Below, piece by piece: positions 6,001 through 9,000 of a DNA stretch of 15,685 nt. Where the stretch lies: IMG/VR virus record IMGVR_UViG_3300028453_000035; one strand, 5' to 3'. Positions within the stretch are counted from its first letter, which is position 1, and every line of letters begins with the position of its first letter. The stretch comes from a virus (lineage: Duplodnaviria; Heunggongvirae; Uroviricota; Caudoviricetes). Made by a program: the position numbers.

Positions 6001-9000
6001 GGCTTTTAAGCGGCTCAAAAGTTTGCTGCACCTGGATGCTTTGCGTGCAAAGGAACCAGAACTCGCGAAAGCGTGGATATTTGCTAATCTACTCGCCGCA
6101 TTTTTAATTGACGACATAATCCAGCCATCGCTGGATTTCCCCCCCAGAAGTGCCGGATCCGAAAAGAAGAACTAACTCGTTGTGGAGAATAACAAAAATG
6201 GTCATCTGGAGCTTACAGTGGCCATTCGTGGGACAGTATCCCTGACAGCCTACAAAACGCAATTGAAGAACGCGAGGCATCGTCTTAACGAGGCACCGAG
6301 GCGTCGCATTCTTCAGATGGTTCAACCCTTAAGTTAGCGCTTATGGGATTCTCCCCCGCCTGGTCTCTTACTCCTCAGGTTCGTAAGCTGTGAAGACAGC
6401 GACCTCCGTCTGGCCGGTTCGGATTCGTACCTCGCAGAGGTCTTTCCTCGTTACCAGTGCCGTCACTATGACGGTTAAACAGATGACGATCAGGGCGATT
6501 AGCATCGCCTTTTGCTGCTTCATAGCCTGCTTCTCCTTGCCTTTCGGCACGTAAGAGGCTAACCTACGTGTGTAGAGCATAGATATGGCCTCAGATTAAT
6601 GTTAAGCGTCTTGCCGGACGCGTAATGTTAACTGGGGCTTTTCTCTATCTGCCTTTTGGTGTTCATGCCTGAGACAGATAGCCTCAAGCACCCGCAGTCA
6701 TTCTACCCGTTTTAGATTTCTCAGCCAACTTTATGCTCACAACATATACAAATTTCCCGGTTAAAGCTCATCATGTTAGATAGTTTTTGCGTACGCACTA
6801 TTTTTTTATGTAAACTGCGCAAAAAAGTTTAGCACCCTAAATTGTTAAGGGAAAGTTAAGGAAGTGTTAATGCTTGAGCAAACAGTAAAAAACATCAATT
6901 CACGCTTTGGCTGGCGCAACACCCGTAAGCTTCTTGGTTCATCACTGGGTGTAACGGCCCAAGGATTACCCCTTTTTATTGAACGTGTAAATAGTGTAGT
7001 TCAGCATAATCCCGACCTAAAAGACAGAATCGACGATTTCTGGAAAGGTTTAATTTTTAGCGGGAATCGATTACTTTCTATTTATAGAATCACCGATGAA
7101 GACGTAGCAAAATTACAAACAATTTTCACAAATCAGAAAAAGGACAATAGCCCCTTCTCAGAAAAATACCCAACTCCTTTATCCAGAGAGGAGCTGTTAG
7201 TTGCTGATACTGAGCTGCATTTTGCTGAACTACGTCAAGATATCATTCGTGATAAACAAATTGACACTGCTGTTTTTTTATCCAAAGCGTATTACACTGA
7301 AGTGATAGAGCTTGACCCAACACATCTTAGCGATGCGGGTATGGAATTACGTGCTAATGGTGGAGAAATAAAATGCAAAACACGCCAAGTCACGCAATGC
7401 TTTAATACCATCATGCTAATGCCTGCAGAAAAAATATTAATTCTTACGATTGATTTATCTATCCTTCCAAGAAGTGAATCACAGCCTCAACAATACCTTG
7501 TGGCTAAATTTATAAAAAAAGAAGCTGGCGTTATTTTAAACAATCCTCTTGAATTATTTGGTTCAATACAAGATCTTTACGAAAAAGTAGATGGCAGAAT
7601 TTCTCATGTATCTTTTATCACCTCAGATGGCAATACAAGTTCTTTAAAACTCAAACCAAGTCAAAAGTGTTTGCGTCAAGATGTTTACCATCATAGTGGA
7701 GAGTCCGCAAGCCCAATATTGACAAAGTTTAAGTTGGGAAAAATTTGGGATTTACCACAAAGTTCTTCACATATTTTATCAGTAGAGTTAATATTACCAG
7801 GAAAAAGGACAATGCTTGATAATCCTAGAATTAGGTTGCATGAAGCAATTGCGAAGAACTGTAACAACATTGATTCGATTATATTTATTGTTGAAAAAAT
7901 ATTGGATTCTGTTAAGTCCTGTGAAGAGAAAAGAAGAGCGAGATCATCAGGCCATAAATGAAAAAGAGTATATATCACGACATTATCACGCAAATAGAGC
8001 AGGATTTTAATGATCCTGTTCGCAGTGTGTGTCGTGATCTTTTTCTTTTTCTGGTTAGTAAAGATGCTAAAAATATCAATCACTTTACATACAAAACCCT
8101 TATCAATGGTTTAACCTATCTAACTGATACGAAAGATGACTATATCCTGCTAATAAAAGCAACTGATTATTTATCTAGCTATAAAGCACATCTATTGGAT
8201 ATGCATTTTCAATACATTGATAATTTAACGGAAGAACCAATACCAGTTGAAGATGATCTTATTTCCTATGCTTTAGACACAGGAAGTTTTTACCATCCAG
8301 AAACTGGCGAATTGGTTGATAATTTTAGCCAGTATCTTTATCCATACTTTACTCCTTCGAGTCTTTTGGAGAGTCTGCATGAGTGATGTAAACATCTGTA
8401 CTGCAGACCTTCAATCATTAATTAGAATGGATCCTGAATTTAGGGGAATGGTTCAAAGAAAATTAGCTGCAGACAAAAATATTTTTGTAAAGCAACTCTA
8501 TGAAGATTTAGACGACGCTATTCAGAATTTAGAAAATGACAAACACTTCTATCAAGATGCTAAGTGGGGAGAGGACGAGCTAACAGCGTCGATCAAAAAT
8601 TTCCTGAAAGGTAGGTTTTATGATGTTGAACATGATACTCAACATGGCGGTCACGTTGATTTATTAGTTAAACATCAATTCGGAAAATTCGAATGGATCG
8701 GTGAAGCAAAATTATGGAGAGGCCCCAAATCTATTCATAATGGCTGGATTCAGCTAACCGAACGTTACGGCACGGGTACGTCACGTGACGATCATGGAGG
8801 AATTCTAATTTATATAAAGTCTGACAAATCAGCAGTAAAATTCAATGAATGGAAAGAATTTTTCTCTACGACCGTTTCGGACGCAGAAATTGAAGCGGAA
8901 GGCTCTCCCCTCCGCTTTAAGAGTATCACAAAGCATCCAGCAACAGCGCTTCCATATCATGTAAGACACATGGGAGTATCCTTATACCATTACACTGGTA

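Follow-up and report, generated by a model that had tools for sequence, protein, structure and literature searches.

A predicted PD-(D/E)XK nuclease in a three-gene cassette of a lambdoid prophage: a candidate effector of anti-phage defence

What would be the role of a small predicted nuclease carried by a lambdoid prophage, and would it act alone or together with the genes beside it? The question is raised by a stretch of 15,685 nucleotides from the IMG/VR virus record IMGVR_UViG_3300028453_000035 (Caudoviricetes), called here, in its full length, the window. The window is a lambdoid prophage of Escherichia coli; over positions 6700-9100 it is 100% identical to strain 2013C-3181, and it is 99.9% identical to the prophage adjoining ompW in the enteropathogenic E. 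coli (EPEC) strain E2348/69. An earlier note, made from the sequence alone, had read one protein of this locus, C, as a nuclease of PD-(D/E)xK type resembling Mrr. The computational analysis presented here suggests that C is very probably a metal-dependent PD-(D/E)XK endonuclease, and that its gene is the third of a cassette, A-B-C, which would most likely be an anti-phage defence module. The three genes are the following (positions and strands are those of the window):

6870..7961, + strand: gene A, 363 residues from ATG 6870 (365 if begun at GTG 6864); basic, isoelectric point (pI) 8.8; predicted RdgC/Iml3 fold; proposed DNA-binding sensor or regulator
7958..8386, + strand: gene B, 142 residues, pI 4.6; small, acidic, soluble and fast-evolving; proposed adaptor or inhibitor
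8379..9020, + strand: gene C, 213 residues; predicted PD-(D/E)XK (restriction-endonuclease-fold) nuclease; proposed conserved effector of the cassette

Residues of C are counted from the ATG at 8379, which has a GGAGAG Shine-Dalgarno sequence 5 nucleotides upstream and an overlap of 8 nucleotides with the stop of B, and from which the homologues align at residue 1. These three properties favour the form of 213 residues over the RefSeq/PGAP start, M17 (8427), which gives 197; in other words, 16 residues are probably missing from the start of the annotated protein. Translation of 8379-9020 (+) places GGHVDLLVKHQFGKFEWIGEAK at residues 90-111 (nucleotides 8646-8711) and EDELTASIKNFL at residues 65-76, and agrees at every point with the coordinates first given for the motif: D94 is the GAT codon at 8658-8660, E109-A110-K111 are encoded by 8703-8711, and the D94-E109 spacing is 14 residues. 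The elements on which the argument turns are these:

8571..8576, + strand: E65-D66, where core helix 65-78 begins; proposed to supply the first acidic metal ligand
8646..8660, + strand: G90-G91-H92-V93-D94, in which D94 is the putative 'D' of PD, on predicted strand 91-98
8703..8711, + strand: E109-A110-K111, the (D/E)xK motif, on predicted strand 105-112
8751..8768, + strand: Q125-L-T-E-R-Y130, on predicted helix 116-130; family motif downstream of the catalytic strand

Taken by itself, such a motif says little. Six matches to the pattern D-x(10-20)-[DE]-x-K can be counted in C, but when its sequence was shuffled 2000 times, 83% of the shuffles contained one or more, so that the bare motif is no better than chance and acquires meaning only through conservation. 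A word-indexed search with C returned 45 homologues, and in the 33 of them that were aligned, down to 27% identity, E65, G91, H92, D94, W106, G108, E109, A110, K111, Q125 and Y130 are invariant. An exhaustive profile search extended the family to 1001 cluster representatives (clusters at 50% identity) at E<=1e-3, with 372 at E<=1e-30; when the best 150 representatives were taken together with C, seven positions (E65, G91, D94, E109, K111, Q125 and Y130) were still the same in 151 of 151, with D66 kept in 139, H92 in 123, A110 in 140, and L126 and R129 in 147 each. In a MAFFT alignment of 103 sequences with a mean column identity of 25%, no column is invariant apart from those of these seven positions. 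The family thus delimited has hardly been named: C matches phrog_9664, of unknown function, one UniRef cluster of its relatives carries the name 'Restriction endonuclease', searches of Pfam and NCBIfam gave no family match for C, and PDDEXK_9 appears below threshold (E about 0.01) in three homologues. Against the sequences of the PDB, single-sequence and profile searches returned only Rab GTPases, PH domains and a lipocalin at E>=0.005, which were taken as chance.

The AlphaFold2 model of C (predicted local distance difference test, pLDDT, 92.1; predicted template modelling score, pTM, 0.88) follows the order helix (65-78), strand (82-88), strand (91-98), strand (105-112), helix (116-130) and strand (139-146), which is the canonical alpha-beta-beta-beta-alpha-beta core of PD-(D/E)XK enzymes, preceded by a region, residues 8-58, that is modelled as helices only. 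In this model E65 opens the first core helix, D94 lies in the second strand, E109 and K111 in the third, and Q125 and Y130 in the helix 116-130. Structure prediction had been put forward in the earlier note as a check of its proposal, and the restriction-endonuclease-like fold then expected is the one obtained, with the D, E and K of the motif among the residues common to all representatives; the further suggestion that an acidic helix could supply the first catalytic Glu fits equally well, as shown by the position of E65. With a high degree of confidence, fold and active site can be regarded as supported computationally, and on the model C would very probably be a metal-dependent PD-(D/E)XK DNA endonuclease, with sites at E65, D94 and E109-x-K111 and with the Q125...Y130 helix motif as a further invariant element.

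Catalytically inactive PD-(D/E)XK domains exist, and it might be supposed that C has retained the fold without the activity, serving only as a DNA-binding or scaffolding subunit. However, all the canonical catalytic positions are invariant in 151 representatives that are less than 50% identical to each other, a signature of purifying selection on the chemistry, and an inactive C is for this reason scarcely credible.

The place of C within the superfamily is a different matter. Mrr also belongs to it and has a similar D...(E/Q)xK arrangement, but the likeness to Mrr suggested at first was not borne out, and this candidate was rejected: neither C nor any of the 33 homologues matches Pfam Mrr_cat at E<=1, and hhalign of C against E. 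coli Mrr gives a probability of 0.9-1.2% with the motifs out of register. Nor is there a Pfam match to Mrr_N in C or these homologues, the N-terminus of C having no Pfam match of any kind. The nearest sequence relative found is the nuclease domain of McrC, and the relation is weak: hhalign of the broad profile against E. coli McrC has a probability of 30% (E 5e-4), in an alignment that is in register, D94 pairing with D244 and E109-A-K111 with D257-A-K259 (which we take to be the McrC catalytic motif), while the Q-L and GG(I/L)LIY motifs pair too; Pfam McrBC is matched neither by C nor by the 33 homologues. McrC (E. coli b4345; structure 6hz4, McrBC) has as its partner McrB, an AAA+ GTPase, whereas C has as partners A, of RdgC fold, and the small acidic B, two proteins in which Pfam, NCBIfam and PADLOC gave no P-loop or AAA+ match.

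In structure, C stands nearest to the type IIP enzymes BamHI, BstYI, OkrAI and BglII (1bam, 1sdo, 3odh, 1d2i), with which it shares 8-14% sequence identity and no similarity in profile searches, and from which it differs in the lack of a cognate methyltransferase, in its partners A and B, in the additional N-terminal helices 8-58 and in the invariant Q...Y motif. C is, in short, a separate PD-(D/E)XK family, structurally nearest to the BamHI group and by sequence faintly McrC-like. A type II restriction-modification system was also considered for the cassette and rejected because no methyltransferase is linked to it: among the loci with inspected gene tables none has one beside the cassette, the E2348/69 copy has none annotated in its vicinity, and the methyltransferase gene of the window lies ~5.7 kb upstream of A and about 7 kb from C.

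The earlier reading had taken C alone; its gene belongs, as the third, to a conserved cassette. In 61 of the 69 loci examined (59 of the 69 being IMG/VR viral contigs) the three genes lie colinear on a single strand, and in the remaining eight either the contig is cut inside B or A has diverged too far for the narrow profile. Genes resembling A and B lie ahead of C in Shewanella, in a metagenome and in other genomes, with the homology confirmed by profile searches; a scan of genome contigs with a narrower alignment returned three loci. The stop of A and the start of B overlap by 4 nucleotides (ATGA), and this, together with the overlap of B and C, suggests translational coupling and a protein complex. 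As a separate observation, a contig of 1 kb (L016, 41-943, protein P0088) encodes a protein of 300 residues with a match to the C profile at residues 91-294, the broad A profile being matched as well, at E 1.3e-12, by the spanning open reading frame; this would be a fusion of an A fragment with C or else an assembly artefact.

A, B and C all fall into PHROG families of unknown function (phrog_12777, phrog_11490 and phrog_9664). RdgC is the best structural match of A, while at the level of sequence hhalign detects no similarity of A to either E. coli RdgC or lambda RexA, and Pfam, NCBIfam and PADLOC offer no significant family. The identity of A drops to 13-20% in cassettes whose C retains 30-35%, a faster divergence that would be expected of a sensor with respect to its effector. 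The only stretch of the A model with low confidence (pLDDT<50), residues 271-286 (7674-7721, numbered from GTG 6864), holds several residues that rank among the best conserved in close homologues, D273, Y275, H276, G279, A282 and L286, in the motif YHHGGE..SPILTK, and may be an interaction or catalytic loop. B was recovered in just seven homologues by word search; it is acidic in all 11 that were aligned (pI 4.3-6.0), and it has no family in Pfam, NCBIfam or PADLOC, its profile against the PDB giving only FAN1 at E 1.3, which was disregarded. An effector logic like that of the membrane protein RexB was rejected for B and C, as neither has a transmembrane segment: the maximum Kyte-Doolittle value (over 19 residues) reaches 2.39 in lambda RexB but only 0.57 in B and 0.16 in C.

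A different kind of evidence comes from the re-use of the C domain. Among the best 150 relatives of C, 10 are long proteins that carry it at their C-terminus with the catalytic residues intact, most of them with NACHT and HEAT repeats and one with NB-ARC and TPR, the architecture of nucleotide-binding leucine-rich-repeat (NLR)-like proteins of the STAND (signal transduction ATPases with numerous domains) class; only distant relatives of C are fused in this way. In the four NACHT-HEAT fusions whose contigs were inspected, two of these contigs being short, no A or B homologue is found alongside. By contrast, the metagenomic locus L080 (4941-8662) encodes an NB-ARC-TPR protein that ends in the C domain and is followed by homologues of A (E 5.5e-53) and B (E 3.4e-23); it is a hybrid of the single-gene NLR form and the three-gene cassette. 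In the known bNACHT and Avs systems, which are NLR-like STAND proteins with nuclease effector domains, the nucleoside triphosphatase (NTPase) is in the same polypeptide, whereas C is a stand-alone protein of 213 residues with no NTPase domain. The PADLOC candidate PDC-S54 is also related: positions 295-353 of its 410-position profile match C at E 0.0016, and its C-terminal part (about 295-371) is matched by 25 of 33 C homologues, the best at E 7.5e-11. Judged by these profile matches the relationship is one of domains only, with no full-length match, and PDC-S54 is an unvalidated candidate of a single gene.

It is here that a methyltransferase-free, modification-dependent restriction of type IV has to be weighed, in which A would bind modified or foreign DNA and C would cut it directly, as in McrBC or Mrr, with no abortive infection. 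The cassette has no NTPase or translocase equivalent to McrB; no modified-base reader domain (SRA, YTH, Mrr_N or similar) was detected in A, B or C; and a nuclease domain that has been fused to NLR-like STAND proteins is more suggestive of an effector set off by a trigger than of a restriction enzyme acting constitutively. We consider this possibility unlikely.

The cassette is, in addition, a mobile and sparsely distributed element. Among 5426 complete E. coli genomes, 14 carry it, and the guanine plus cytosine (GC) content falls from 47.7% in the rest of the window to 36.5% in the cassette. Divergent copies occur between Q and stx1, in an equivalent Q-proximal slot, in seven Stx1a-converting phages, and a PM2-like (Vinavirales) prophage of Vibrio has another next to its integrase; a further copy is carried as Tn7-like cargo, adjoining TnsB and an AAA_22 protein, and yet another is flanked by PADLOC candidate genes. 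Matches to C alone, obtained by tblastn and with neighbourhoods not inspected, extend to phage records of Moraxella, Acinetobacter and Klebsiella and to plasmid records of Pseudomonas, Calothrix, Vibrio and Rhizobium.

This distribution bears on two further explanations. According to the first, the cassette would serve the phage's own DNA metabolism (recombination, replication restart or an anti-RecA activity), A acting like RdgC and C processing DNA structures in the manner of nin-region nucleases such as RusA. PD-(D/E)XK enzymes are common among the recombination nucleases of phages, RdgC, to which A is structurally closest, is a modulator of RecA, and the cassette does lie in the nin/Q region near rusA. 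However, it is antisense to the early-right/nin genes of the prophage, inserted between a Q-family antiterminator gene and hokD/sok, with a foreign GC content; it is rare in E. coli genomes although such prophages are common; it recurs in unrelated phage types, in plasmids and as Tn7-like cargo; and its nuclease domain has been joined to NLR-like STAND NTPases. A role in phage DNA metabolism is, for these reasons, quite improbable.

According to the second, A-B-C would be an addiction module of toxin-antitoxin type that stabilizes the prophage or plasmid, with C as toxin, B as antitoxin and A as DNA-binding autoregulator, and with no primary anti-phage role. The small size and acidity of B and its translational coupling to C would agree with this, as would the presence of the cassette on prophages, plasmids and transposons and its position beside another addiction module, hok/sok. 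A protein of 363 residues with an RdgC fold would nevertheless be an atypical regulator of such a module, the more so as it diversifies faster than the supposed toxin, and antitoxins usually precede or directly pair with their toxins in units of two genes, whereas here three are kept together in most loci. This explanation appears decidedly unlikely, bearing in mind that toxin-antitoxin and defence roles are not mutually exclusive.

The interpretation that we favour, with moderate confidence, makes C the effector, a Mg2+-dependent DNA endonuclease, of an anti-phage cassette borne by prophages and other mobile genetic elements, A being a diversifying DNA-binding sensor or regulator and B an adaptor or inhibitor. 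Whatever goes beyond the fold and active site of C is drawn from gene linkage, mobility, relative evolutionary rates and the re-use of the nuclease domain. The mechanism could have the following steps: (i) A, being basic, of RdgC fold and fast-diversifying, would bind DNA and recognize some feature of the infecting phage, either replication or recombination intermediates or a phage protein on the DNA; (ii) B, small, acidic and also fast-diversifying, would couple A to C or else keep C inactive; (iii) and finally, once triggered, C would cleave DNA, with the result that the superinfecting phage would be blocked and the cell possibly killed, that is, abortive infection.

Several results weigh against this defence interpretation. 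None of the three proteins matches a curated family (Pfam, NCBIfam) or a validated PADLOC system; the links of C to known nucleases at the level of sequence are weak, that with McrC reaching a probability of just 30%, and a Foldseek search of the C model against the PDB gave nothing at E<=1e-3. In the region before A, a promoter scan of the + strand gave no consensus sigma-70 site, so that expression in the lysogen has to be presumed. Finally, the L080 fusion still has A and B beside it, from which it follows that these two proteins are not simply the sensor that a STAND protein replaces.

A bolder version of the defence interpretation can be put forward only tentatively, as something that may be so. 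In it, A-B-C would be an undescribed, widespread and NTPase-free 'Rex-like' immune system, in which a fast-diversifying sensor of RdgC/RexA fold, responding to phage DNA or to replication or recombination intermediates, would license through a small acidic partner a McrC/BamHI-like nuclease that has also been recruited by NLR-like proteins, and which would provide superinfection exclusion in prophages of EPEC and Shiga toxin-producing E. coli (STEC), Stx1a-converting phages included.

The surroundings of the cassette in the window are composed of the following features:

6368..6523, - strand: hokD toxin open reading frame, immediately upstream of the cassette and diverging from A
6518..6693: sok antisense RNA (Rfam RF01794, 117 bits); hokD and sok together span 6368-6693 (- strand)
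~5064..6175, + strand: transposase gene of the IS4-like insertion sequence IS421, frameshifted according to PGAP, separating the DUF968/rusA/Q genes from the hokD side of the cassette
9017..9550, - strand: Q-family antiterminator gene, convergent with C
2467..3162, - strand: second Q-type antiterminator gene, different from that at 9017-9550
115..1182, - strand: phage DNA methyltransferase gene of the late-regulatory region, by correspondence with the annotated 2013C-3181 record
1872..2351, - strand: PemK/MazF-family toxin gene of the late-regulatory region, by the same correspondence
14587..14638, + strand: DicF small RNA (Rfam RF00039, 75.8 bits), in the dicB/ydf region of the prophage

The stop codons of C (9018-9020) and of the convergent Q-family gene overlap, and no intrinsic terminator lies between the two genes, so that both transcripts could collide. 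Since two different Q-type genes flank the cassette, hok/sok and the insertion sequence, the region suggests a mosaic junction of two lambdoid late-control regions; the IS421 insertion is absent from the E2348/69 copy of the prophage. In the 2013C-3181 record three tRNA genes stand just past the methyltransferase, probably outside the window, and neither these, nor the methyltransferase, nor the PemK/MazF toxin is linked to the cassette in other loci.

Within a superfamily that is itself very well known, C represents a new family. For the combination of its McrC/BamHI-like nuclease with an RdgC-fold protein and a small acidic one there is no entry in Pfam (2025), NCBIfam (2026) or PADLOC-DB 2.0.0, and literature searches found no paper describing the A-B-C cassette. 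If the proposed role is correct, three PHROG families of unknown function would gain an assignment, with a family of at least 1000 clusters at 50% identity behind them, and an effector domain of bacterial NLR-like proteins would receive a name. It would also mean a defence cassette with an unusual candidate for its sensor, of RdgC fold, in which the long-known but little-understood fold class of lambda Rex and RdgC would be tied to a nuclease effector. And as the cassette is found in EPEC and STEC prophages, adjoining stx1 in Stx1a-converting phages, it may, if all this is true, influence which phages superinfect these pathogens and hence the ecology of the phages that carry Shiga toxin.

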